Numbered from the stretch's first letter, positions 41,113 to 54,039 are shown. The stretch: DNA of 64,000 nt from a bacterium (GCA_965249615.1 CBDFMI010000005.1:199462-263461), one strand, 5' to 3'. Notes: generated from the sequence alone by a model not told the origin. Program-made: numbers and translations.

Positions 41113-41673
41113 ATGCTAACATTTCAAATCAAAAAAGAGTTCCCCTTCACACCGAGTGAGCAACACTACCTGCGGGCGATATACGAGCTTCAGGAGGAGC
41201 AGGGGTACGCCCGGGTCACGGATGTCGCTCGCAAGCTCAACATCGGCAAAGGGGCCGTTTCTTTGGCTCTGAAAGGGCTGGTCGAGCGCGATCTGATACG
41301 CCACCCCCACTACCAAGTCATCGAGCTCTTGCCCCAGGGGAAGGTGGCGGCCAAGCAAGTGATGAGCCGGTTTGCCGTCCTCAAACATTTCCTTGAACGG
41401 GTTTTAGGCGTCAAAAAGAACATGGCTTACGTTGACGCCTGCCTGATGGAGCATTTCATCAGTGGCGAAACGCTGGATCGCCTCATTGACCTCATTCGTT
41501 TCTTTGAGCTGGAAGATGACCTGGTCCGAGAGGCCGTGCAGCGGTTTCAGGCCTACCGGCGAACCTGCGAGAGCACGGAGCATTGTCCGATCTGCGAGTT
41601 CAACTGCGAGGTGGTCCTTCCCGAGTTGGAGAATTCAGCTGCGGACCCCGGGCCGGGCCACACGGTGAGGTGA
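41113..41673 (+). CDS. DtxR/MntR-family metal-dependent transcriptional regulator with extra C-terminal Cys cluster
   Basis: HTH and dimerization/metal domains (HYLRAIYELQEEQGYARVTDVARKLNIGKGAVS ...). C-terminus CESTEHCPICEFNC (C-x4-C-x2-C-x3-C). Confidence 0.8.
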   Translation: MLTFQIKKEFPFTPSEQHYLRAIYELQEEQGYARVTDVARKLNIGKGAVSLALKGLVERDLIRHPHYQVIELLPQGKVAAKQVMSRFAVLKHFLERVLGVKKNMAYVDACLMEHFISGETLDRLIDLIRFFELEDDLVREAVQRFQAYRRTCESTEHCPICEFNCEVVLPELENSAADPGPGHTVR

Positions 41674-41857
41674 TATCAAGGCCAAAAGTTCCCGAAGGGA
41701 ACCTTTGCCTGTTCCCAATTCCTGACCAGCTACTTCAGCCCCATCGAGGCCGCAAGGAAGCCAGCCAAGGAAGGGAAAAAATTCCTTTCCCGGCTTTTTC
41801 ATGAGTGGGAGGCGAGGCACTCGTCAAGCTTCTGTCTCATTAGGGAGAAAAAGACTA

Positions 41858-42874
41858 ATGGCACTGTTTAGATCTCGGATGAGTTTTTTTCATGCGATTG
41901 CCTGCTTTGCTCTCGCCCCGCTTTTCCTTCTTCTTTGGCCCCCCTTCTCAGGGGCTCAAGAGCTTGTGGTCTATTCGGGGCGAAAGGAGATTGCCATTAA
42001 ACCGGTGATCGAGGCCTTCGAGAAGAAGACCGGTATCCGGGTGGCCTTGAAGATCGGAAAGACGGGCGGGTTCATTAATCAACTCATACAGGAGAGCCGC
42101 AACCCGCAAGCCGACGTCTTCATCTCGACGACGGCGGGGGCGATCATCTCGGTCTCGGATCGGGATCTCTTCCATCCCTATGTTTCCCCGATCGCAAGCT
42201 CCATTCCGGACGTCTACAAGGGCCCTGATGGCCTTTGGACGGGGATCTCCGGGCGAGCTCGAATCCTGATGTATAACACCCAGCTCATCAAGCCTGAAGA
42301 AGTGCCGAGGTCTGTCTTCGAGCTAACGGATCCAAAATACCGAGGTCTTCTGGCCATCGCCAGCACTCGCGAGCGGACCACCCTGGGCTGGCTCAGCGCC
42401 CTGCTGGACTTCTTGGGCGAGGCAGAGGCCAAGGCCTATATCCAGAAACTTCGGGCCAACGGTCTTCACATCCTTCCAGATAACACGGACGTCCGCCGGG
42501 GCGTTGGAAATGGGGAGTTCGCCCTTGGCCTGACGAATTCCCCGAATTTCCATCTCACCTTGAGGGAGGGGGACCCCGTTGGGGTGGTCTTTCCGGATCA
42601 GGGCACTGATCAGATGGGGATACTTATCAATCCCAACACGGTTTCCATCGTGAAAGGGGCAGAAAATCTCGACGAGGCCAAGCAGTTTGTGGATTTCATC
42701 CTTTCCCCGGAGGTGGCTGGGATCCTTGTTCAAAATGCCTTCGAGATCCCCCTTCACCCCGATGTGACCCCCGTGGGTGTCCAAGGTCTCGGGGATTTTA
42801 GTCCAGCCGCCGTGACCCAAAGCCGACTGGGGTCTCTCGCTGAGCGCACCCTAGAGATTTTCCCCGACTTCTGA
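41858..42874 (+). CDS. fbpA: Fe(3+) ABC transporter periplasmic substrate-binding protein (FbpA/AfuA family)
   Basis: Signal peptide plus class II SBP with FbpA-like motifs (ELVVYSGR ... FISTTAGAI ... ILMYNTQLIKPEEVPRS). Confidence 0.8.
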   Translation: MALFRSRMSFFHAIACFALAPLFLLLWPPFSGAQELVVYSGRKEIAIKPVIEAFEKKTGIRVALKIGKTGGFINQLIQESRNPQADVFISTTAGAIISVSDRDLFHPYVSPIASSIPDVYKGPDGLWTGISGRARILMYNTQLIKPEEVPRSVFELTDPKYRGLLAIASTRERTTLGWLSALLDFLGEAEAKAYIQKLRANGLHILPDNTDVRRGVGNGEFALGLTNSPNFHLTLREGDPVGVVFPDQGTDQMGILINPNTVSIVKGAENLDEAKQFVDFILSPEVAGILVQNAFEIPLHPDVTPVGVQGLGDFSPAAVTQSRLGSLAERTLEIFPDF

Positions 42875-42881
42875 GATATCG

Positions 42882-44492
42882 ATGACGCTGGAGACAATCG
42901 CCAGGAGGCCGTCACGAGTTCGGACCCGTCGTTCTCTCGGCGCCGTCAAGTGGTCTATCCCCGTTGCGGTCCTCCTCGTATTCTTTCTGAGCCCCCTCGC
43001 CAATCTCCTCGTGGAGGCCGTTGGCATTAAGTCTCCTGCCCTGGCCACCCTCTTTCGGTCAACCTTGCCCTGGCTTATCCTTCGGACGCTCCTGCTGGCC
43101 CTGGCGACCACCCTGGCGGCCGTCTCCTTGGGGCTTCCTCTGGCTTGGCTTGCCGTCAGGACTGATGTTCCGGGGCGAAGGCTTTGGAGGTGGCTCGGCG
43201 CTCTTCCCCTGGCCATCCCCCCCTATATTGGGGCCCTTGCCTTTCTCAACCTCCTGGGTCCGGGCGGGGTTGTCAATGTCCTCTATCGAGAGGCGACGGG
43301 TGCCCCGGGCCTCATCGTCAACCTCTACAGCTTTGGGGGAACGGTCTTCGTCCTTTCCCTCTTCACCTATCCCCTTGTCTTCCTCTTCACCGCTTCGGCC
43401 CTGGAGGGGAGCCACGCTACCTTCGAGGAGGTGGCCCGAAGCCTTGGTCACCGCTCAGGCAGGGTCTTCTGGCGGGTCACCTTCCCCCTGCTTCGTCCGT
43501 CCCTTTTGGCCGGGGGCTTGCTCGTCTTCCTCTATGTCTTGGCGGACTTTGGCGCAGTCTCCGTCCTGCGCCAGCAGACTTTCACGACAGAGATCTTTCA
43601 TTTCCTGAATACGCGCTTTGATCAGGCGGCGGCCGCGGCCCTCTCCATCATCCTGACGATCATCACTGTTTCTGTTCTCCTGGCTCAACGTCGGTTCCTC
43701 GGGCGGAGAAGCTATGTCCAGATTGAGGGCCGGGCACGCCCGGCTCGCCCCAATCGCCTCGGACCTTGGAGGCCGATCGCTGTCCTTTATCCAGTGACCC
43801 TGACGGCCGCCTCCCTGGGTCTCCCCATCTTTCTCCTCCTTTTACAGATTGAATCTTGGTCGGCTGCCGTGGCGACCGTGCTGGACCAGGCTGGTTTTCT
43901 CTGGGCGAGTGTCTGGACGGCCGCCGTCGCGGCCACGGCGGGAGTCGGCATTGGACTCTTTGCAGGCTATCTAGCCCTTCGCAGGGCCCGCCAGGGCGGG
44001 GCCTCCCTCTTCTGGGGCCTTCAGCTCTGTTATGCCATCCCCGGAACGGTCCTGGGGCTCAGCCTGATCCTCCTCTATAGCTCCTGGCTGCCTTGGGTCT
44101 ACGGGACAGCCGTCATGGTGGTGATTGGCTACACGATTCGTTTCATCCCTCAGGCTGTCCAGGGCATCACGGGGGCCCTTCGGCAAGCCCACCATCAACT
44201 GGAGGAGGCGGCCAGGGGGCTTGGGCTTGGGGCCCTGGAGACTGTCCGGCGGGTCGTCATCCCCCTCATTCGCTCCGGTCTTCTGGCCACCTGGGTCCTC
44301 GTCTTCATCTCTTCCATGAAGGAGTTGGCGGCCACCCTCCTGTTGCGCCCCGCCGGCTTTGATACGTTGCCCGTGCGCATTTGGATCCACACCATTGAGG
44401 CCGATTACTCCAAGGCGTCCACCCTAGCCCTGGTCCTTGTCGCGGTTTCCGCCCTTCCTCTCCTTTTGGTGGAGTGGAGGAGGATCACCTGA
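42882..44492 (+). CDS. fbpB: Fe(3+) ABC transporter permease (fused two-domain FbpB)
   Basis: 536 aa, about 12 TMs, two BPD-transport (EAA) modules. Confidence 0.85.
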   Translation: MTLETIARRPSRVRTRRSLGAVKWSIPVAVLLVFFLSPLANLLVEAVGIKSPALATLFRSTLPWLILRTLLLALATTLAAVSLGLPLAWLAVRTDVPGRRLWRWLGALPLAIPPYIGALAFLNLLGPGGVVNVLYREATGAPGLIVNLYSFGGTVFVLSLFTYPLVFLFTASALEGSHATFEEVARSLGHRSGRVFWRVTFPLLRPSLLAGGLLVFLYVLADFGAVSVLRQQTFTTEIFHFLNTRFDQAAAAALSIILTIITVSVLLAQRRFLGRRSYVQIEGRARPARPNRLGPWRPIAVLYPVTLTAASLGLPIFLLLLQIESWSAAVATVLDQAGFLWASVWTAAVAATAGVGIGLFAGYLALRRARQGGASLFWGLQLCYAIPGTVLGLSLILLYSSWLPWVYGTAVMVVIGYTIRFIPQAVQGITGALRQAHHQLEEAARGLGLGALETVRRVVIPLIRSGLLATWVLVFISSMKELAATLLLRPAGFDTLPVRIWIHTIEADYSKASTLALVLVAVSALPLLLVEWRRIT

Positions 44493-44533
44493 TGGGCATC
44501 GCCTCGCTGCTCGGCCTGAAGGACGTGTGACCC

Positions 44534-45661
44534 TTGTCAACGCCCATTATCAAAGTTGAAGACCTTCGGATGCGCTATGGGGCGCGCGAGCCCTGGGCCG
44601 TCTCCGACGTCTCTCTTTTTTTGGAGGAGGGAGAGATCCTGACCCTCCTTGGCCCAAGCGGGTGCGGCAAGACGACCATGCTCCGCCTCATCGCAGGCTT
44701 TGAGGTCCCCGAACGGGGCCGAGTCGTCATCGATGGGCATTTGGTGGCGGGGGAGGGGGCCTGGTATCCCCCCGAGCAGAGGGGCGTGGGAATGGTCTTT
44801 CAGAACTATGCCCTCTTCCCTCACCTGACAGTGGCAGAGAACGTGGGTTTTGGCCTGCACCCCTGGCCGCTTCCGCTTCGAAACGCCCGGATCGGGGAAG
44901 TCCTGTGCTTGGTGGACCTGCTGGCCCTTCGGGATCGCTATCCCCACGAGCTCTCCGGGGGGCAGCAGCAGCGCATCGCCCTCGCCCGGGCCCTGGCCCC
45001 GGGTCCCCTGGTCATCCTCCTCGACGAGCCCTTCAGCAATCTGGACGCCGACATGAGGGGTCAGGTCCGCCAGGAAGTCCGAGACATCCTGCGGCGCTCC
45101 AAGATGACGGCCCTTTTTGTGACCCACGAGCAGCAGGGGGCCTTTGAGATCTCAGACCGGATCGCCGTCATGAACAAGGGTCGAATCGAGCAGTTGGACA
45201 CGCCAGAGAACATCTTCCACAACCCCGGCACCCCCTTTGTGGCCCGGTTTCTCGGCCAGACTGACCTCGTGCCCGGCGTCATCCGCGGAGATTGCGTGGA
45301 GACAGAGCTTGGCAGCTTCCCCTATTTCACCGACGGCGGGGGCCTCCCCGATGGGATGCGTGTCGAGGCGGTCATCCGGCCGGCCGATGTAGACGTCATT
45401 CCCTCCCGGCAGGGAACGGCCGCGGTGAAGGGACGTCGCTTTCGAGGCTCAGACAACCTCTACACGTTGATCCTCGCCTCGGGAACCAAAGTCCATAGCG
45501 CCACGCCCTGGGATTTCGTCCTCCCCCTTGGAAGCCAGGTTTCGGTCTCGATGGAGCCCCTTCGGGTGGTCGTGTTTCCGGTGGGGGAGGAAAAAACATC
45601 TGAAAACCGGAGCAAAGAAACGCCGAGTTCGACTCTTTCAGGAAGGATGTCAAATGGATAA
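44534..45661 (+). CDS. fbpC: Fe(3+) ABC transporter ATP-binding protein
   Basis: Walker A GPSGCGKTT, signature LSGGQQQRIALARAL, Walker B ILLDEPFS, TOBE-like C-domain. Confidence 0.85.
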   Translation: MSTPIIKVEDLRMRYGAREPWAVSDVSLFLEEGEILTLLGPSGCGKTTMLRLIAGFEVPERGRVVIDGHLVAGEGAWYPPEQRGVGMVFQNYALFPHLTVAENVGFGLHPWPLPLRNARIGEVLCLVDLLALRDRYPHELSGGQQQRIALARALAPGPLVILLDEPFSNLDADMRGQVRQEVRDILRRSKMTALFVTHEQQGAFEISDRIAVMNKGRIEQLDTPENIFHNPGTPFVARFLGQTDLVPGVIRGDCVETELGSFPYFTDGGGLPDGMRVEAVIRPADVDVIPSRQGTAAVKGRRFRGSDNLYTLILASGTKVHSATPWDFVLPLGSQVSVSMEPLRVVVFPVGEEKTSENRSKETPSSTLSGRMSNG

Positions 45662-46157
45662 CAGGAGCATGTACTCACTAAGTTGGCTTGTCGCAGGATT
45701 CCTCTTCCTTTGGACCGGAATTGCCTCTGGGGACGAACAAGTCTTGGCCCAGGAGGTCCGCGAAGGACTTTCCATCGTCGTCATCTCGGAAACCGCTGAG
45801 GGGGTCCACCCTCCCGACCTGACGCTTCCGGCGAATCAGGCGACTCATCACATCGAGGTCTTCGCCACCTTCGCCGAAGGAAACCTTTACGGGGGACATC
45901 CCGCGAGTTTTTTCCCCTACCTCAGACTCCTAGTGACTACCCGTCGGGCGGGAAAGGAAGAGATTTTTCGGACCCCCCTCATCCCCCTGGCTCATCATCG
46001 CGGGCTTCACTATGGGGCCAATGTCAACCTTCCTGAGAAGGGACGCTACGAGATGACCCTTCGGGTGGAGCCGCCTGGTGAGCACGAGGTGGGGCGTCAC
46101 GACGATGTGGGGGACTGGTTTCCCCCCTTCGAGGTGACCTTCGATCTTGTCTATTAA
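45654..46157 (+). CDS. P19 family periplasmic iron/copper-binding protein (FTR1-associated P19 / FetP / FtrA-like)
   Basis: Overlaps the fbpC stop by 8 nt. Signal peptide. Matches P19 motifs: GLHYGANVNL (P19 GPHYGANI) and GRHDDVGDWFPPFEVTFDLVY (P19 GRHVDEETGVGKWFEPFKVDYKFKY). Confidence 0.75.
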   Translation: MDNRSMYSLSWLVAGFLFLWTGIASGDEQVLAQEVREGLSIVVISETAEGVHPPDLTLPANQATHHIEVFATFAEGNLYGGHPASFFPYLRLLVTTRRAGKEEIFRTPLIPLAHHRGLHYGANVNLPEKGRYEMTLRVEPPGEHEVGRHDDVGDWFPPFEVTFDLVY

Positions 46158-46204
46158 ACGCAGACTATTGGGACCTTTGTCGGAAGGGGGTGAGAAATGA
46201 GGTG

Positions 46205-46385
46205 CTAGCAAGGTAAGCTTGTGCGCTCTTAAAAAGAGAAGGCTACCGGCCACAGGATGGCTGTCCGAGCCGGTAGCCCCGCAACCAACCGCTGGCCTTG
46301 CTCCGCTGACGTCGGCGCAGTCTGATTGTAGGATTTTTGCTGCAAAAGTCAACTGCTGAGAGCAAGGCTTACCTTGAAAAGGAGG
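46205..46385 (+). promoter_or_regulatory. Structured 5' leader / candidate cis-regulatory RNA upstream of the porin-like gene
   Basis: Within a 233-nt intergenic region. A 10-bp hairpin GGCTACCGGC(46241-50)/GCCGGTAGCC(46269-78) is nested inside a long-range 10-13-bp pairing CAAGGTAAGC(46209-18)/GCTTACCTTG(46367-76). The second arm abuts the AAAGGAGG RBS (46377-84) of the ATG at 46391. Confidence 0.3.
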
Positions 46386-46390
46386 TAGGC

Positions 46391-47733
46391 ATGCAACGCC
46401 CAGCCGCCATTGGTTTTGTATGGTGCTTTCTCCTCTTGGGGACCGCTTTTGCGTGGGCCCAAGAGGAGGATGTGAAGGGGCGAATTGAGAACCTGGAAAG
46501 GGAGCTTGGGGAAGTCCGGGAACAACTTGAGAGGCAGGGGGAGGAGGTGGAGAGGAGAACGCGTGTCCTTGGGGAGGAGGTGGAGTCTTTCAGGGTGAGG
46601 CTCGCCGTTCCAGAGGTGAGAGAACTAAAGAGTGTTTACGGTCTCGGACCTGCGGCGTCGAAGGTCTATGGCGTTGAACAAGGGCTCTCCATAGGTGGTT
46701 ACGGGGAGTGGACCCTCCAGACGTTTCACGGGGATGTAACGGACGAGCGGAACAAGGCTGACATCTTGCGCACGGTCCTTTACACTGGTTTCAAGTTCAG
46801 CGACCAGTTCGTCCTGAACGCCGAGTTCGAATTCGAGCACGGCACCAGCTCGTCCACATCGAGTTCCTCCAATGGGTCGGTCTCGGTGGAGTTCGCCTAC
46901 CTGGACTGGCTGATAGCGCCCCCCATCAACTTTCGGGTGGGTGGTGTTCTCATCCCGGTGGGTTTTCTCAACGAGGTCCACGAACCCCCCTTCTTCCACG
47001 GGGTGATTCGCCCTTCAGTGGAGCGGCAGATCATACCGACCACTTGGCGGGAGATCGGAGCAGGGTTCTTTGGTGAGCCCTTGCCAGGGCTTGAGTATCG
47101 CACCTATGTGGTCAACGGGATGAACGCCAAGGGCTTCTCAAAGAGCAATATCCGGGGGGGCCGACAGAAACTGAACCGAGCCTTCGCGGAGGATTTTGCC
47201 CTGACCGGACGCTTGGACTATACTGGGGTACCGGGCCTTCTGGTGGGCGGTTCTTTCTTCTGGGGGGACTCAGGCCAGGATTAAAAGTTTGCGGGAAAGA
47301 AAGTAGACGCAGAGCTCCTGATGGGGGACCTCCACGCCCAGTACCGTTTTCGTGGTCTGGAGCTGAGGGCTCTCGGCGTGGCGACCCATATCGGTGATGC
47401 TGACCAACTTAGCAATGACCCGGACATCAAGGGTCCGATCAGCAGTTTCCTCTGGGGATGGTATGCGGAGGCTGCCTACAATGTGCTCCCCCTCTTCCTC
47501 CCGGAGACCGGTCAGTTTCTGGCCCCTTTTTCCGGTGGGAACAATTCAACACCCAGGCGGATGTGCCCAGCGGGTTCACCCCCGATCGCTCGAGGGATAG
47601 AGACCTTCTCACGCTCGGGCTCACCTATAAGCCGATCCCGAACCTCGTCTTCAAGGCCGACTATCGAAACTTCTTCCCGGACGCCGGGGTAGAGGCGGCC
47701 GAGTTCAACTTGGGTGTGGGGTTTGTGTTTTAA
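46391..47733 (+). pseudogene. Outer-membrane β-barrel porin-like protein with N-terminal coiled coil; interrupted by an in-frame TAA and a 1-nt frameshift
   Basis: Signal peptide (AFAWA), coiled coil (IENLERELGEVREQLERQGEEVERR), β-strand-rich body, C-terminal ...NLGVGFVF with terminal Phe. TAA at 47282-47284 is in frame with a homologous continuation. A T-run at 47527-47531 is one T short of giving ...APFFRWEQF... Confidence 0.6.
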
Positions 47734-47793
47734 ACGATGGATTTTCCTTATGGGTCTCGGGAGGGGCTTGCTCCCCTCCCGAGAAGGGGTTCA

Positions 47794-48345
47794 ATGCGGC
47801 AGTTTGAAATGTTGCTGGTCGGTGTTCTCCTCTTTCTCCTTGGCGTGGCTGGAGAAGTCCAAGGCCAGGTGTTTTTGTCTAAGGAGGAAGCCCTTGAGCT
47901 GGCCTTCCCAGAGGCCGATCAGGTAGAACGGAAGACCTTCTTTCTCACGGAAGATCAAAAGGAAAGGGCTGAAGGTCTTGCGAGGAGCGCACTCGATTTC
48001 AATCTCTTCACCTTCTTTGTTGGAAAAAAGGGAGAAAATGTCCTTGGTTATGCCGCCATTGACGTTCACGTTGTCCGCACCTTCCCCGAGGCCTTCCTGA
48101 TCATTCTCGGTCCGGATGGCCGGGTGACAAATACTGTCCTCCTGGCCTTCTATGAGCCGAGAGAATATCTTCCGAGCGAGAGGTGGTTGGAACAGTTTCC
48201 AGGAAGCGACTTGAACTCAGACCTCAGGGTCGGACGTAGAATCCACGGTATCGCGGGTTCGACGCTAACCGCTCGGGCTGTGACAGGGGCGGTGAGAAAG
48301 GTCCTGGCCCTTTACCGGGTGTTGATCCAGGAAGGAGATGGGTAA
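47794..48345 (+). CDS. Periplasmic FMN-binding domain protein (FMN_bind; flavinylation target)
   Basis: Signal/anchor peptide. FMN_bind domain with the flavinylation-type motif HGIAGSTLTARAVTGAVRKVL. Confidence 0.7.
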   Translation: MRQFEMLLVGVLLFLLGVAGEVQGQVFLSKEEALELAFPEADQVERKTFFLTEDQKERAEGLARSALDFNLFTFFVGKKGENVLGYAAIDVHVVRTFPEAFLIILGPDGRVTNTVLLAFYEPREYLPSERWLEQFPGSDLNSDLRVGRRIHGIAGSTLTARAVTGAVRKVLALYRVLIQEGDG

Positions 48346-48860
48346 TGCGATTTGTCGTGACAGGGGAGTGGAAACAAAACGACCTTTTGAGATTTATTCT
48401 TTACTTTTTTCTCCTTTATTCTTCTCTCCTCTGGGTGACGAACCTCCTCCTGAACCTCGGAAAGATGGGCCTCACATATGGCTCGGTGGTTGCCTATTAC
48501 CGGGGGGCGGAGGAACAATTCCTGCAGCCTCGAAGCTATCTCGGGCTCCTGGAGATCACCCATTTTCATGTGTTCGCGATGGGCATTCTCATCCTGACGC
48601 TGACCCATCTTGCACTCTTCGTTCCCGTTCACCCTAGGTTTAAGTTCTGGCTCATTGGGGTTTCTTTCCTTTCCGCCATCTCGGACGAGGGGGGAGGTTG
48701 GCTGACCCGATTCGTCCACCCGGCTTTCGCCTACTTCAAGATCGGTTCTTTTCTTCTGTTCCAAATCTCCCTGGGTACCCTCATCCTCATCGTGTTTTTT
48801 TCCCTCCTGTTTTCACAACGAAATGCCTATTCGGAGGGCCCCGGAAATTCGGCGCCATGA
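48345..48860 (+). CDS. His-rich 4-TM membrane protein of unknown function (possible heme b-binding electron-transfer subunit)
   Basis: ATG overlaps the upstream TAA (TAATG). Four predicted TM helices with conserved-looking His (THFHVF, THLALFVPVH, FVHPAF). Confidence 0.45.
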   Translation: MRFVVTGEWKQNDLLRFILYFFLLYSSLLWVTNLLLNLGKMGLTYGSVVAYYRGAEEQFLQPRSYLGLLEITHFHVFAMGILILTLTHLALFVPVHPRFKFWLIGVSFLSAISDEGGGWLTRFVHPAFAYFKIGSFLLFQISLGTLILIVFFSLLFSQRNAYSEGPGNSAP

Positions 48861-48880
48861 CCCCCGCCCATTGGCAGAGG

Positions 48881-49924
48881 ATGAATAGGCCTAAGGTGCG
48901 GTCCTTTTTCCGGTCTCCTTCGAAGCTTACAAGATTTATTCTGCCGTTATTCCTTCTTTTCAGTCCCCCCCCTGCCTCAAGCCAGGTCCTTTTGGAGGAG
49001 AGCCACTATGTGATGGGAACCTGGTTGAGAATCACCATGCCGGAATCAGACGCCCAGTCCGGCAGAAAAATCCTCCGCCAGGCCTTCGAGGAAGTGCAGC
49101 GCCTGGACGGCCTCCTCAGTCACTATCGGCTAGATACCCCCCTGAGCCGCCTAAATTGTCAGGCGGGACGCGGTCCCCAGGAGGCCCCCTTTGAGCTGAT
49201 GGAGGTGCTCCACATTTCAGCTCGATTAAGCCGTCTCACGGAGGGGGCCTTCGACATCACGATCGGGCCCCTGGTCTCTCTATTAGAGGAGGCAAGTCGG
49301 AGCGGTTTCTGGCCGCAAGATCTCGGCGACGTTCTCCCGAATATTGGGTGGGAACTACTGCGTTTTCCGGGCGGAAACCAGGTGGAACTTTCCCGACCGG
49401 GAATGCACCTTGACCTTGGAGGGATCGGGAAGGGGTACGCGGTCGATCGGATCCGCGAGATCCTGATTGAGGCGGGGACACGCTCGGCCTTCCTCAATTT
49501 TGGTGAGAGTAGCCTCTTGGCCTTGGGCAACCCCCCGGATTCCCCCTCTTGGAATATTCTGGTTCGAGGTCTCGAGCCCGACACCTTCCTTGGGGTCTTG
49601 TCCCTGCGGGACCAGGCTGTGTCTATTTCCTCCACCTTCGGTCGAACATTCCAGGTGGATGGGAAGACCTATGGACATATCTTTGACCCGAGGACAGGGG
49701 CCCCACTTTCTGAACCTGCCCTGGCAGTCGTCGTGGCAGTCAACGCCGCAGAGGCCGAGGCCCTGTCGACGGCGTTGCTGATCCTTGGCGCTGAGGAGGG
49801 ATTTTCCCTCTTGGATCAATTCCCGGGCAGCGCTGCTCTCTATGCTTCCGATGAGGCTGTTAGAATGACGCCCGCTTTTGAAAAGCTCTTCGATTTAACC
49901 ACCTTCGAGAAACAGGACGATTGA
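48881..49924 (+). CDS. apbE: FAD:protein FMN transferase (ApbE/Ftp family), secreted
   Basis: Signal peptide. ApbE motifs (YVMGTWLRITM, GAFDITIGPLVSL, DLGGIGKGYAVDRI, ISSTFGRTF ... GHIFDPRTG). Confidence 0.85.
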   Translation: MNRPKVRSFFRSPSKLTRFILPLFLLFSPPPASSQVLLEESHYVMGTWLRITMPESDAQSGRKILRQAFEEVQRLDGLLSHYRLDTPLSRLNCQAGRGPQEAPFELMEVLHISARLSRLTEGAFDITIGPLVSLLEEASRSGFWPQDLGDVLPNIGWELLRFPGGNQVELSRPGMHLDLGGIGKGYAVDRIREILIEAGTRSAFLNFGESSLLALGNPPDSPSWNILVRGLEPDTFLGVLSLRDQAVSISSTFGRTFQVDGKTYGHIFDPRTGAPLSEPALAVVVAVNAAEAEALSTALLILGAEEGFSLLDQFPGSAALYASDEAVRMTPAFEKLFDLTTFEKQDD

Positions 49925-50086
49925 CGCCTCCAACAGGAGTGGGCTGAGGGCTTCCTTTGGGACCTCTGAGTTCTCCTTCGCCATCAGAAGATGGGCCAGA
50001 TATTTTATTCGCCAGCTAGAATGAAAATGATATTTCTGTGAGGGTTTCTGTTTTTGCCGTCCTGGTTCCTCGGAGGAGCTTCAATC

Positions 50087-50608
50087 ATGACCCTAAGCTT
50101 ACGAGAATTCTAGACAGTCCTGCACGGGACAGTTTTCGGGGCCATCTATCTCATCGCCTTCGCCGGAGGCTTTGCGGGCCTTTGGAGCCTTCGAAAAGAG
50201 TTTGTCACGGCGGAAGGGCTTCGGGAACGGCTTCGCCGCCTCTACGCCGGGGTCTGGGGGATGGCGATCATATGCTGGGTCGCGGTGCTCAGCGGGACCT
50301 ACATCGTTTATCCCTGGTATCGGGCGGCCATCCCAGAGAGCCCCCGCTCGAGGCTCCTGGCCGATCCCGCGAAGGCGGCCTGGCACACCTTTGGGATGGA
50401 GTGGAAGGAGCACATCGGCTGGCCGTCGGCGATCCTGGCAACGGCGGTCGCCTTTGTCGTGACCTACTATGGCCCCGCGCTTTTGAAACGACAGCAGTTG
50501 CGGAAGGCTGTCCTCGTTCTTTTTGTTCTCGCCTTTTTCGCGGCGGCCGTTGCAGGGATTTTTAGGGCGTTTTTGAACAAAGTGGCCCCCATCCTTAGAG
50601 GAGAGTGA
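50087..50608 (+). CDS. Small 4-TM membrane protein with an in-frame TAG at codon 9
   Basis: GGAGGA RBS 10 nt upstream of ATG 50087. Reading frame MTLSLREF-TAG(50111-13)-TVLHGTVFGAIYLIAFAGGFAGLWSL... continues as hydrophobic helices to 50608. No alternative start codon occurs before 50261. Confidence 0.4.
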
Positions 50609-50610
50609 AG

Positions 50611-50945
50611 ATGAATCGTCCAAGCCAACAACTCGCCGATCCCCCGATGGGGCCGGCCCTGGCCGCATCCTCTCCTCCGCCTTCGGGGTGTTTGTCATGG
50701 GGCTTTTTACCACGCTGGCCTCAGGCCTTCCCGGGGTCAAAAGTTTCCTGAACTGGTGGTCGCCGGCAGGACCCCTCACCGGAAAGTCCGGCCTAGGGGT
50801 CATCGCCTGGCTTCTCTCCTGGCTGATCCTCCACGCCCTTTGGAGGAAGCGGGAAGGGGCCTTCGGAAAGATCTGGGTCTTCACGCTGGTCCTCCTCATA
50901 TTGGGTGGGCTCCTGATGTTTCCCCCGATTTTTGAGGCTTTTTAG
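50611..50945 (+). CDS. Small membrane protein, probable frameshift near 50640-50690
   Basis: AGGAGA RBS 7 nt before ATG 50611 (frame ≡1). A hydrophobic ORF continues in frame ≡0 from 50688 (VFVMGLFTTLASG ... 2-3 TMs). C5/G4 runs in the junction. Confidence 0.3.
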
Positions 50946-51093: not shown

Positions 51094-52428
51094 ATGCGGC
51101 TAAAGCGTCATTTGTTAATGGGCCTGGCCATCTGGCTCACCTTGATCTTTGCCATCGGTGCCACAGAATCCTTCGCCCAGGGGGCGGATCTCCTGGACAT
51201 CTTGAAGCGGCGGGGGGTCATCACAGAGGAGGAATTCCAGGAGCTCAAGGGGCGGCAGGCGGAGCGGGCGGCCCAGAGGAACTTTGAGGTCGGCTTCGGC
51301 AAGGGCTTTTTCATCCGGTCCCGGGACAAGCGACGCGAGCTCAAGTTCGACACCCAGATCTTCGAGCAGCTCATGGTCCTTCCAGAAGACTCAGAGGAGG
51401 ACACCACATTCCGGCTCCGCCGGGGCCGGGTGACCCTCAGCGGCCACCTCTTCAAGGATTTCACATATAAGGTCGAATTTGACGGGACCTCGGACCCCGT
51501 TGTGGATACGTCCGCCTACCTCGGTTATGAGCGGTTCAAGCCCTTGAAAGTCCGCTTTGGGCAGAGGAAGGACCCGTTTGGCGGGGAGAAGACTTATAGC
51601 CGGTACAAGCAGTTCTTTATCGAGCGCTCCATGATCTCAGACAACCTGACACCCTCCACCCAGAGAGGGGTCTGGTTCTTGGGGGACCTGTTCAACAAAA
51701 AACTCTCTTATGATGTGGGCGTCACCAACGGGGCCGGCCGGGCCCAGGACAATAACGACGACAAGGATTTTACGGGCCGGCTGATCTGGCGACCTTTCCG
51801 GGACAGCGGCATGCAGGACATTTTACCGCTGGAGATCGGGGGTAACTTCAACATCGGGCACCAGCCTTTCAGCTCTAACGGGGCTCGGACTCGCCTCTTT
51901 TTGCGTGACAACCGGAAGGTCATCTTCAATGCGAGCACCGAGGGGCTTCGCGTCCGAGGTGGCGGGGACATTTTTTATAACAAAGATTACAAGCACGGTC
52001 GCGTTTCCCTCCTTGGGGAGTTTATCTGGCAGCAGAATGAGCGCGAGGGACCTGTGCTGACCGGGACGGGGACCCTCCCCAAGAACCCGGACACTGTCGT
52101 CCGCTACGGCTGGACCCTGTCGGGAGGGGCCCTGCTCCTTGGGAGCCGGAAGAAGAACGGCCTTGAGTTTGTGGCCAGGGTGGAGCAGATCGACGCGGAC
52201 GACTCGGGGAACAACGGCGGGGCCGACGAGCTGGTGGGTCAGCAGTTGACGACCTACGGTCTGGGGCTCAACTTCTGGCCTTATTCACAGCTCCGTTTTT
52301 CCGCGAACGGCTTCATCTTTGACTTTGACCGGGCGACAGACCTGACGTCTGCGGACCCCTTTGAGCAGGAGGGGACGACCTACGGTGTTCTGTTCGCCGC
52401 CATGCTGAAGTTCAAAGGGGCCAACTAA
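51094..52428 (+). CDS. Phosphate-selective porin O/P family outer-membrane protein
   Basis: Signal peptide (SFAQG), Porin_O_P-like sequence ending ...AAMLKFKGAN. AT-rich promoter block upstream. Confidence 0.75.
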   Translation: MRLKRHLLMGLAIWLTLIFAIGATESFAQGADLLDILKRRGVITEEEFQELKGRQAERAAQRNFEVGFGKGFFIRSRDKRRELKFDTQIFEQLMVLPEDSEEDTTFRLRRGRVTLSGHLFKDFTYKVEFDGTSDPVVDTSAYLGYERFKPLKVRFGQRKDPFGGEKTYSRYKQFFIERSMISDNLTPSTQRGVWFLGDLFNKKLSYDVGVTNGAGRAQDNNDDKDFTGRLIWRPFRDSGMQDILPLEIGGNFNIGHQPFSSNGARTRLFLRDNRKVIFNASTEGLRVRGGGDIFYNKDYKHGRVSLLGEFIWQQNEREGPVLTGTGTLPKNPDTVVRYGWTLSGGALLLGSRKKNGLEFVARVEQIDADDSGNNGGADELVGQQLTTYGLGLNFWPYSQLRFSANGFIFDFDRATDLTSADPFEQEGTTYGVLFAAMLKFKGAN

Positions 52429-53050: not shown

Positions 53051-53171
53051 ATAAATGGTGAGTGTTTTAGCTTGCTGAATTTTATAGCGAGGTTCACCAA
53101 TGAGCATGGGGTAAAGCTAAGGCTGGCCAAGAGAAAAGACCGGTGATAAACCCCGGGGGGGCAAGGTGACC

Positions 53172-53978
53172 ATGGAACACAAACATATTTGGCGTTGGCA
53201 GTGGGGAAATCTTTTTGCCATTCTCAGGATAGTGCTGGGCGTCATTTTCATTCTCGGGGGAATCAAGCTTGCCTTTCCCGCTGATCCGGGGGCGCTCGCA
53301 GCGAGCTATATAGATCCTGCCAAGGGATGGATTGCGCCCGTGTTTGCTGAAAGGATCACGGGGACGCTAGGCATCAACATCAGCTTGTTTCTGAAAATCC
53401 AAGGGATCATAGAGATCGTTATCGGTGGGCTGATGGTAATTGGGCTTTTTTCCACGTCCGTCGCTGTCGTCATGGGTCTCATGTATTGGGCGTTTATCAT
53501 CGCCAACCCGGTGGTGGGACCGGTCCGGTTGAGCAGGGACATGGCGCTAATGGGGTTCTCTTTCGCCACGGCCCTCGCAGGAGTTGGGGCTTTGAGTTTC
53601 GACGCGCGATGGCGTGGGCTCCAATCTAAATTCTCTGAGCGGAAGGACGTTATTCTGATTATGGTTCGGCTGGGCTTGGCCTACGCTTTGGTCACGTCTT
53701 CTCTGTTTTTCGGCGGCCCCCTGAACACCTCTCTGAATACGACCATCCCTCTAGTCCTGGTCTTTGTCATGGGGGTCTTGCTTGTCCTCGGTGTCATCCC
53801 CCGATGGGTAGCAGCGGCCGTCTTCATCTGGCTTCTCTTGCCCCTCGGCCAGAGCATCGCCGCAAAGGGGGTTTTTTGGGGGCTGGAAGGGGTGAAGAGA
53901 GAGTTGGGATTGATGGCCGCTTCCTTTGTCTATTTGATGGCCGGTCCAGACCGATGGGTTTGGCCCAGGCGCCGATAA
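53172..53978 (+). CDS. DoxX-family-like polytopic membrane protein (tandem DoxX-like halves)
   Basis: About 8 TM helices. Repeats of (I)LRIVLGVIFILGG / LVRLGLAYALV DoxX-like segments. Confidence 0.45.
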   Translation: MEHKHIWRWQWGNLFAILRIVLGVIFILGGIKLAFPADPGALAASYIDPAKGWIAPVFAERITGTLGINISLFLKIQGIIEIVIGGLMVIGLFSTSVAVVMGLMYWAFIIANPVVGPVRLSRDMALMGFSFATALAGVGALSFDARWRGLQSKFSERKDVILIMVRLGLAYALVTSSLFFGGPLNTSLNTTIPLVLVFVMGVLLVLGVIPRWVAAAVFIWLLLPLGQSIAAKGVFWGLEGVKRELGLMAASFVYLMAGPDRWVWPRRR

Positions 53979-54039
53979 TTTCGAGTCTGTTGTCTCCGTC
54001 ACATCCTTTTGGGTTCCCATCTCGTAACAGGAGGAAGCC

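Follow-up and report, generated by a model that had tools for sequence, protein, structure and literature searches.

Why should the genes for a protein predicted to carry covalently bound flavin stand directly behind those of a ferric iron importer? The question is raised by positions 46391–49924 of a 64,000-nucleotide (nt) stretch of bacterial DNA (GCA_965249615.1 CBDFMI010000005.1:199462-263461; this whole stretch is called the window, and all coordinates are counted from its first letter). The genes concerned encode an outer-membrane β-barrel protein (OMP), a secreted FMN protein, a 171-aa membrane protein carrying the family label Aq_1264_TM (PF27139), and an ApbE-type FAD:protein FMN transferase. 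The probable function of this conserved gene set is electron transfer to or from iron as the metal is taken up. Our favoured model, which we put forward tentatively, is that of a quinol-linked flavin relay serving iron uptake, i.e. a redox module distributed over three compartments that would function as a split flavocytochrome-type ferric (or metal) reductase.

According to this model, ApbE would load FMN covalently onto the Thr of the sequence GIAGSTLT in the secreted RnfG/NqrC-type protein. A dimer of Aq_1264_TM would bind a redox cofactor, most likely haem b, through His residues where its second transmembrane helix (TM2) reaches the periplasm, and would link the flavin with the quinone pool. 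The substrate would be admitted by an acidic Porin_O_P-like channel in the outer membrane. Electrons would preferably flow from quinol through the membrane protein to FMN and from there to either a Fe(III) chelate or the copper/iron site of P19, single electrons thus being supplied upstream of the Fe(III)-handling transporters. In this lineage the module is built into an iron-uptake operon comprising DtxR, fbpABC and P19.

Predicted redox proteins of the module

Every gene of the locus (41113–49924) lies on the + strand. The open reading frames (ORFs) of the module were found where the initial annotation, a reading of the DNA alone, had placed them:

46391–47733, +, outer-membrane β-barrel protein (OMP) with an N-terminal coiled coil, distantly Porin_O_P-like, interrupted
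47794–48345, +, secreted RnfG/NqrC-like FMN protein, 183 aa from the ATG at 47794 (the ORF opens at 47737)
48262–48264, +, predicted flavinylation Thr codon of the FMN protein
48345–48860, +, 171-aa four-helix membrane protein, PF27139 (Aq_1264_TM)
48552–48554, 48561–48563, 48567–48569 and 48606–48608, +, codons of E70, H73, H75 and H88 of the membrane protein
48857–49924, +, ApbE FAD:protein FMN transferase (Pfam ApbE, E 2.7e-61)

The claimed tight linkage is seen in the sequence TAATG (48343–48347), in which the stop codon of the FMN protein overlaps the start codon of the membrane protein; the stop of the latter in turn overlaps the ApbE start as ATGA (48857–48860). The ATG of the OMP gene at 46391 is preceded by AGGAGG.

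The identity of the transferase is well founded. ApbE matches Pfam PF02424 with 207.9 bits (cut-off 25.6) over profile positions 1–263 of 266, as well as the NCBIfam ApbE model with E 1.8e-28, a value under the cut-off of that equivalog. Inspected by eye, its N-terminus is signal-like, with the hydrophobic segment FILPLFLLF following a basic stretch and no lipobox Cys.

The FMN protein, which contains GIAGSTLTARAV, had been assigned an FMN_bind domain. In the Pfam scan this assignment missed the cut-off (PF04205, 16.8 bits versus 22), the match being restricted to the last 25 profile positions, i.e. the motif region, but a relationship with RnfG/NqrC emerged from both profile and fold comparisons. 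A family profile made from 32 homologs (A2) matched RnfG of Acetobacterium woodii (9eri_G) with E 2.9e-9 (residues 53–178), IHGIAGSTLTARAV of the FMN protein being aligned with IQAITGSTITSKAV of A. woodii RnfG. The AlphaFold (AF2) model calculated from the homolog alignment reached a pLDDT of 91.5, and its best 18 Foldseek matches in the PDB were all RnfG or NqrC (probability 0.98–1.0, TM-score 0.4–0.6). The Thr proposed as the flavin acceptor is invariant in the 32 sequences of A2 and in ~77 homologs derived from the loci described below. The motif around it reads (S/T)GAT in most homologs and AGST, VGST or MGST in the window gene and several Binatia genes, AGST being the form of the window. 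By sequence profile and predicted fold, the protein is a secreted RnfG/NqrC-type protein with a conserved predicted flavinylation site. It shares fold and covalent-FMN motif with the corresponding subunits of Rnf and Na+-NQR; no other Rnf/Nqr subunit is present at the window locus, where the protein, a single domain with a signal peptide and without a lipobox, stands alone with its four-helix partner. A precomputed PF04205 match is attached to only ~20 of its 120 closest homolog clusters. The subfamily is therefore largely invisible to surveys relying on Pfam thresholds, most of it falling under the one used in PMC8238504, and the catalogue of flavinylated systems is for this reason incomplete.

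For the 171-aa membrane protein the initial annotation could name no family. A label does exist, since a large protein database contains precomputed PF27139.1 matches for P0001, a protein identical to that of the window, as well as for each of the 120 homologs listed there; the family is nonetheless uncharacterised, and no paper mentioning aq_1264 was found in the literature. The protein itself gave no match in Pfam (in a copy lacking the PF27139 model) or NCBIfam, and 26 family members scanned against Pfam at E 10 hit neither a cytochrome nor a transporter family. Comparison of the sequence profile with the PDB returned no match and that of the predicted model with PDB folds no relative, FoxB included. 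The AF2 model consists of four long helices (pLDDT 76). The positive-inside rule indicates an N-in/C-in topology; E70, H73 and H75 would accordingly sit where TM2 meets the periplasm, on the side of the flavoprotein.

The protein had been described as a His-rich protein with four transmembrane helices. The four helices and three conserved His stand, while ‘His-rich’ is an overstatement for 5 His in 171 aa. H73, H75 and H88, together with E70, E115, W119 and R122, are invariant in 26 homologs. The conservation of the His also holds across the wider family: among 150 representatives of 50%-identity clusters, H73 is conserved in 80%, H75 in 83% and H88 in 82%, compared with 87% for E70, 92% for K132 and 34% for H125. 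The exceptions to the conserved His come mostly from single halves of proteins with a tandem duplication.

Two pairs of conserved transmembrane His, as expected for two haems b, were not found; H73, H75 and H88 are the only ones conserved and all belong to TM2, along which they run with E70 from the periplasmic to the cytoplasmic end. Since all three lie on one helix, a bis-His site would need a dimer. This can be related to the many proteins of 305–330 aa (P0256, P0274, P0276 and others) which contain the Aq_1264_TM domain twice in tandem. Here, copy 1 keeps E70 and H73 and copy 2 keeps E70, H75 and H88, i.e. three His in total. The split suggests that the single-domain proteins act as dimers, and a bis-His site at the dimer interface fits the tandem forms because H73 is retained in one half and H75 plus H88 in the other. 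Judged from these sequences, a single site close to the periplasmic surface may be made up of H73 and H75 contributed by different subunits.

Fusions of the membrane protein to ApbE occur in several clusters (P0244, P0245, P0247, P0272) and have their membrane and transferase parts joined by a fifth hydrophobic segment, which an N-in/C-in topology makes necessary. Two other fusions were encountered, namely to PilZ in P0265 and, in P0283, to the C-terminal half of a DtxR-type repressor plus FeoA; the latter may be a gene-call fusion.

Distribution, iron neighbours and co-inheritance

The genes occur together well outside this genome. A scan of one genome per species identified 465 relatives of the membrane protein, and the counts given here refer to the best 80 loci (loci and proteins are designated by L and P numbers, respectively). 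The FMN protein is encoded directly upstream of the membrane protein in 77 of the 80. The OMP gene is found on the same strand in 64 and the ApbE gene in 41, the latter upstream in 21 loci (order ApbE-OMP-FMN-TM) and downstream, as in the window, in 20; for at least 23 loci, ApbE is missing from the neighbourhood although the available flanks are ample. Methylococcales contribute ~35 of the 80 loci, and the other carriers are Methylomirabilota, Rokubacteria, Binatia, Myxococcota, Entotheonella and ‘delta’ metagenome-assembled genomes (MAGs). In L014–L016 (Methylobacter/Methylomicrobium) the membrane protein follows an FTR1::Rieske fusion and no FMN protein is present, which suggests that the protein has another type of redox domain as an alternative partner.

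Iron genes (FTR1, P19, FbpABC, ferritin, DtxR) are located near the module in ~15 loci from several phyla. FTR1 stands beside it in seven loci (L002, L011, L012, L014–L016 and L022), L022 additionally containing a canonical P19. FbpABC was found in L004, L006 and L081, P19 in three loci, and ferritin or bacterioferritin in ~10. Iron-dependent repressors are encoded near the module in the window, L081 and L002, a TonB receptor in L004, and multicopper oxidases in L006 and L014/15. In the window, fbpABC and the P19 gene are immediately upstream of the module, as the initial annotation had recognised, and are themselves preceded by a gene for a DtxR-type repressor:

41113–41673, +, DtxR-family iron-dependent repressor, heading the locus (Pfam Fe_dep_repress E 4e-11, Fe_dep_repr_C E 5e-13)
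41801/41858–42874, +, fbpA, ferric-binding-protein-type ABC importer
42882–44492, +, fbpB, ferric-binding-protein-type ABC importer
44534–45661, +, fbpC, ferric-binding-protein-type ABC importer (fbpABC span 41801–45661)
45654–46157, +, divergent P19/FetP-like periplasmic metal-binding protein (Pfam Iron_transport E 1.8e-22)
46158–46390, +, intergenic leader of 233 nt with a GC-rich hairpin of 10 bp

The fbpABC products show 93.6–99.6% protein identity to their orthologs in the relative L081, which contain the domains SBP_bac_1/6/8/11, BPD_transp_1 and ABC_tran. ORF calls and Pfam revealed no FTR1-family permease within 38–54 kb of the window.

Comparison with the same metagenomic relative, L081, showed that the module is inherited as a unit. 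The flanks of the two sequences are 97–99.7% identical at the nucleotide level, while P19 through ApbE are only 73–91% identical (window 45520–49892 versus L081 6700–11547). The drop begins at ~45520, and the stretch of low identity extends from the P19 start to the end of ApbE. The synonymous divergence (dS) is 0.35–0.53 within the block and 0.02–0.10 in the flanks; dN/dS is 0.11–0.29 for every gene of the block, the lowest value (0.108) being that of the membrane protein. Thus, P19, the OMP, the FMN protein, the membrane protein and ApbE were exchanged as one unit under purifying selection, in what looks, from the sequence comparison, like a recombination event that replaced the alleles of all five genes at once. 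Taken with the neighbours of the module, its co-inheritance with P19 points to iron as the substrate in this lineage.

One member of the unit is damaged. The OMP gene contains an in-frame TAA at 47282–47284, where the L081 ortholog reads CAG (a two-base difference), and has lost 1 nt near 47521, its last ~70 codons being out of frame as a result; both defects had been missed in the initial annotation. The intact ortholog in L081 has 449 aa. An assembly error is unlikely to be the sole cause, given the two-base difference at the stop and the fact that no such lesion was found in 11 neighbouring genes compared with L081. The dN/dS of ~0.2 argues that the porin was functional until recently, so that in this genome it is probably a recently inactivated pseudogene.

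At the family level the OMP is unusually well conserved for a barrel, 109 of 449 positions being ≥90% conserved among 57 sequences from several phyla. Neither Pfam nor NCBIfam assigned it to a family, and the Pfam match to Porin_O_P (PF07396) reached only E 0.15. A distant relationship became apparent when the OMP family was compared by hhalign with that of the Porin_O_P-type porin encoded 3 kb downstream (probability 94%, E 1e-7, 267 columns). Porin_O_P porins typically possess a basic ladder. In its place the OMP has acidic and His-containing motifs, which are among its conserved features (NxExExEH, HEP, RPxVE..IIPxTWRE). An additional gene with a BFN_dom (PF02577, ‘bifunctional nuclease domain’) is inserted between porin and FMN protein in L081 and lacking in the window; genes of this kind lie within or beside the module at L081 8953–9426, L004 6220–6720 and L012 918–1427.

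Direction of electron flow and alternative roles

FMN sites of the RnfG/NqrC type are low-potential, and in yeast a Fre-type reductase step precedes Fet3/Ftr1. We favour the reductive direction on account of these low-potential flavins and because the multicopper oxidases adjoining the module in L006 and L014/15 recall the yeast order, in which the reductase is followed by oxidase and permease. It is further favoured by the iron-linked flavinylated systems characterised or proposed so far, all of which are reductive (PMC8238504).

The same wiring could operate in reverse, the flavin taking electrons from periplasmic Fe(II) that enters through the porin and is held by P19, and passing them via the membrane protein to quinone, with the resulting Fe(III) feeding FbpA or FTR1. 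All transporters beside the module (FbpABC, FTR1) handle Fe(III), the FTR1 loci L002 and L011 contain no separate ferroxidase partner on the sequence at hand, a passive porin suits soluble Fe(II), and carriers such as Methylomirabilota and Rokubacteria belong to lineages of low-oxygen habitats. The FtrABCD model, with P19, a cupredoxin, FTR1 and a membrane ferredoxin, likewise has FtrB/FtrD act as a ferroxidase with an electron sink. We nevertheless consider reversed flow, although a serious rival, rather unlikely, since a low-potential FMN would make the oxidation of Fe(II) feasible only with strongly stabilised Fe(III), the multicopper oxidases of L006 and L014/15 would render a second oxidase redundant, and the reductive character of the related systems speaks against it as well. 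If the module were instead a general periplasmic electron supply or a copper system, its place behind fbpABC-P19 would be a lineage-specific arrangement. The prevalence of Methylococcales among the carriers (~35 of 80 loci), joined by Methylomirabilota and Binatia, would agree with this, as would the copper binding known for the P19 family and the lack of any iron gene at most loci. The same holds for the Methylococcales neighbours, which comprise CDF transporters, a lipoprotein and MbnH/MauG-like di-haem enzymes (TIGR04039 E 1e-42, below the cut-off); the enzymes and the lipoprotein might point to copper or to the modification of proteins. Such a role, still conceivable for the Methylococcales, appears unlikely in view of the unrelated types of iron genes, iron-dependent repressors included, which recur beside the module in at least four lineages, of the exchange of P19 together with the module, and of the Myxococcota, Entotheonella and ‘delta’ MAG carriers, which are not methanotrophs.

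Two further explanations assign a different task to the membrane protein. It might serve flavoprotein maturation, either by delivering FAD across the inner membrane to ApbE or by anchoring and docking ApbE and its substrate. The fusions with ApbE and the translational coupling of the three genes are compatible with this, the route by which FAD reaches periplasmic ApbE has been called obscure (PMC12052999), and part of the Listeria extracellular electron transfer (EET) locus proved to be a flavin transporter according to work cited in PMC10979944. The membrane protein, however, tracks the substrate (77 of 80 loci) more closely than ApbE (41 of 80), persists in the at least 23 amply flanked loci without ApbE nearby, and accompanies FTR1::Rieske where neither ApbE nor the FMN protein is present; moreover, three His and one Glu on a single helix resemble a cofactor site more than a nucleotide channel. 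A maturation role is quite unlikely in our view, and that Aq_1264_TM represents the missing route of FAD to periplasmic ApbE very unlikely. Alternatively, the protein might be a Fe(II)/Cu(I) permease whose pore is lined by E70, H73, H75 and H88, the flavoprotein preparing the ion for transport. The conserved Glu and His do extend along one transmembrane helix from the periplasmic to the cytoplasmic end, and at most loci, where no other transporter is encoded, a permease role would make the module self-contained. This reading would give the flavoprotein no supply of electrons, would be at odds with the complete iron permeases (FTR1) adjoining the membrane protein in several loci, and finds no counterpart in the Pfam scans, which showed no similarity to any transporter family; we regard it as highly improbable.

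Several observations also weigh against the quinol-linked reductive relay itself. Haem b in the membrane protein is putative, the protein matching no cytochrome b family in the Pfam scans and no solved fold, and a classical two-haem wire seems unsupported by a pattern in which the conserved His are confined to one helix and the tandem forms keep three. With Fe(III) as the species handled by FbpABC and FTR1, an oxidative step would be no less fitting than a reductive one. Next to the Methylococcales modules, MbnH/MauG-like di-haem enzymes and CDF transporters are encoded. A search for IdeR/DtxR-type operators gave 0 matches allowing ≤3 mismatches, and no Fur/DtxR operator was found. With its porin broken, the system in this genome may be incomplete. 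As for the role first suggested, namely ferric reduction or a redox step in P19-dependent uptake, it is favoured by the recurrence of iron genes near the module and is called into question by the ~80% of core-module loci that have no iron gene within 10 kb.

Known iron-uptake systems offer partial parallels. FtrABCD, EfeUOB and FetMP as well as the yeast Fre-Fet3-Ftr1 pathway resemble the window in combining a P19/FetP-type protein and a Fe(III) transporter needing a redox partner. Compared with FtrABCD, EfeUOB and FetMP, the window lacks FTR1, a cupredoxin, EfeB and a polyferredoxin, and the redox partner would be the flavin together with Aq_1264_TM. The initial annotation had likened the locus to Gram-positive EET. 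This resemblance holds for the general logic, as the Listeria-type system (FmnB/PplA/EetA/EetB/Ndh2/DmkA) likewise has an ApbE homolog, a flavinylated protein, small membrane proteins and a possible ferric acceptor, but it does not extend to the components: among the ORFs of 41–54 kb there is no Ndh2, no quinone-biosynthesis gene, no PplA-type two-domain lipoprotein and, EetA/EetB profiles not having been run, no EetA/B-like match. The window also differs in coming from a diderm with a porin and in its assimilatory rather than respiratory context.

A link between flavinylation and iron assimilation has been published, with 260 P19 clusters, mostly Gram-positive and FTR1-based, containing an FMN-bind gene; P19/FTR1 clusters were described as lacking a transmembrane electron-transfer component of their own (Meheust et al. 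2021, PMC8238504). In B. breve, mutants in bfeUO (FTR1 family and partner) and in apbE grow poorly under iron limitation, and the screen concerned also yielded the neighbouring sif cluster, whose gene sifE encodes an FMN-binding domain (PMC5449479). These systems likewise combine a P19 gene (iron cluster) with an ApbE-type flavinylated FMN protein, for which a redox step in the assimilation of iron has been proposed. The window differs from the clusters of PMC8238504 in its diderm origin, its FbpABC importer, its dedicated porin and its Aq_1264_TM partner.

The membrane partners known to be associated with flavinylation are NapH-like, MsrQ-like, PepSY-like (FoxB), DsbD and NQR/RNF-like proteins and, described later, DUF4405 and FezC (PMC8238504, PMC10979944). 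The window shares with the PepSY/FoxB, MsrQ-like, DUF4405 and FezC systems a small His-containing membrane protein beside ApbE and a flavinylated protein, often along with iron transporters. The closest analogy is to FezC, whose haem sites are formed by homodimerisation (PMC10979944) and thereby resemble the dimer proposed for Aq_1264_TM. Unlike these cytochromes b, Aq_1264_TM has no PF03929, PF01794 or PF14358 match and no PDB fold match, four helices rather than six and, in place of two bis-His pairs on different helices, three conserved His that share a single one.

No paper describing this gene set was found in the literature, and a dedicated, highly conserved acidic porin is absent from the described systems that we located. 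It is possible, though somewhat doubtful, that Aq_1264_TM constitutes an unrecognised class of dimeric flavinylation-associated redox proteins with the cofactor held between two TM2 helices. Together with the divergent RnfG-like flavoprotein and the acidic porin, it would then form a self-contained trans-envelope pathway of metal redox uptake, widespread in Methylococcales, Methylomirabilota, Rokubacteria, Binatia and Myxococcota and largely invisible to Pfam-based surveys. Beside cytochromes and thioredoxins, periplasmic proteins with covalently attached flavin are coming into view as a third general currency for electron transfer outside the cytosol. P19-type uptake has no described route for electrons to or from the periplasmic metal site, and the locus offers a testable candidate in its four-helix His protein, tied to the flavoprotein by adjacency, start/stop overlaps, ApbE fusions and co-inheritance. 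Members of the family are encoded by methanotrophs that can be grown in culture, among them Methylococcus capsulatus (Bath membrane protein AAU91823.1), which makes the system accessible to genetic and biochemical work.

P19-like protein, leader and flanking genes

The P19-like protein matches Pfam PF10634 (Iron_transport) with 80.6 bits (cut-off 21). It is related to the solved structures of FetP (3nrp, E 1.7e-14) and P19 (3lzl, E 2.4e-10). In the FetP alignment, HLEADIH is replaced by HHIEVFATF, with loss of the Asp and the second His, and the Met of MPM by Leu; the His of HYG and RH(T/D)D are kept, so that three His positions are retained. The HLEADIH motif and the Met are presumably ligands of the Cu/Fe site of P19/FetP.

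Between P19 and the OMP gene, the initial annotation had noted a structured leader. The sequence 46158–46390 has a minimum free energy of −92.9 kcal/mol and a folding z of −2.73, and it contains a perfect, GC-rich hairpin of 10 bp (GGCTACCGGC...GCCGGTAGCC). The score is modest, conservation is limited to the closest relatives (L081/L082), and an Rfam scan of 40.5–51.2 kb gave no credible family for it (best E 0.67). The leader may be an intercistronic processing or attenuation element. Promoter and terminator scans yielded results at chance level.

In L014–L016 (L014 5493–10510, L015, L016 1725–3886), the gene order is multicopper oxidase, bacterioferritin, FTR1 with a C-terminal Rieske domain, and Aq_1264_TM; the multicopper oxidase of L014 is split by a DDE transposase. 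In Methylococcales, where CDF transporters and a lipoprotein are also among the neighbours, an MbnH/MauG-like di-haem enzyme adjoins the module or lies inside it (L037 5673–6845 on the − strand, L060 4314–5522, L029 7909–9345, L059 7961–9265; TIGR04039 E 1e-38 to 1e-44, below the cut-off). M. capsulatus encodes a 232-aa lipoprotein between porin and FMN protein (L037 8629–9327; Bath ortholog AAU91821.1), which gave no match when considered as MbnP-like.

Just 3' of the module, seven loci (L022 11596–11898; L079, L080, L006, L017, L005, L008) share a family of ~100–130-aa proteins for which Pfam and NCBIfam gave no match. The window and L081 differ 3' of ApbE (window 49925–50945 and 53166–54025 versus L081 11548–13950). 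At this place L081 encodes a methyltransferase along with a membrane protein of 221 aa. The window has two short membrane ORFs (50261–50608 and 50688–50945), of which the second contains only a 33-aa remnant of the 221-aa protein, and in addition a paralog at 53166–53978. The Porin_O_P porin of the window (51094–52428) comes after the short ORFs.

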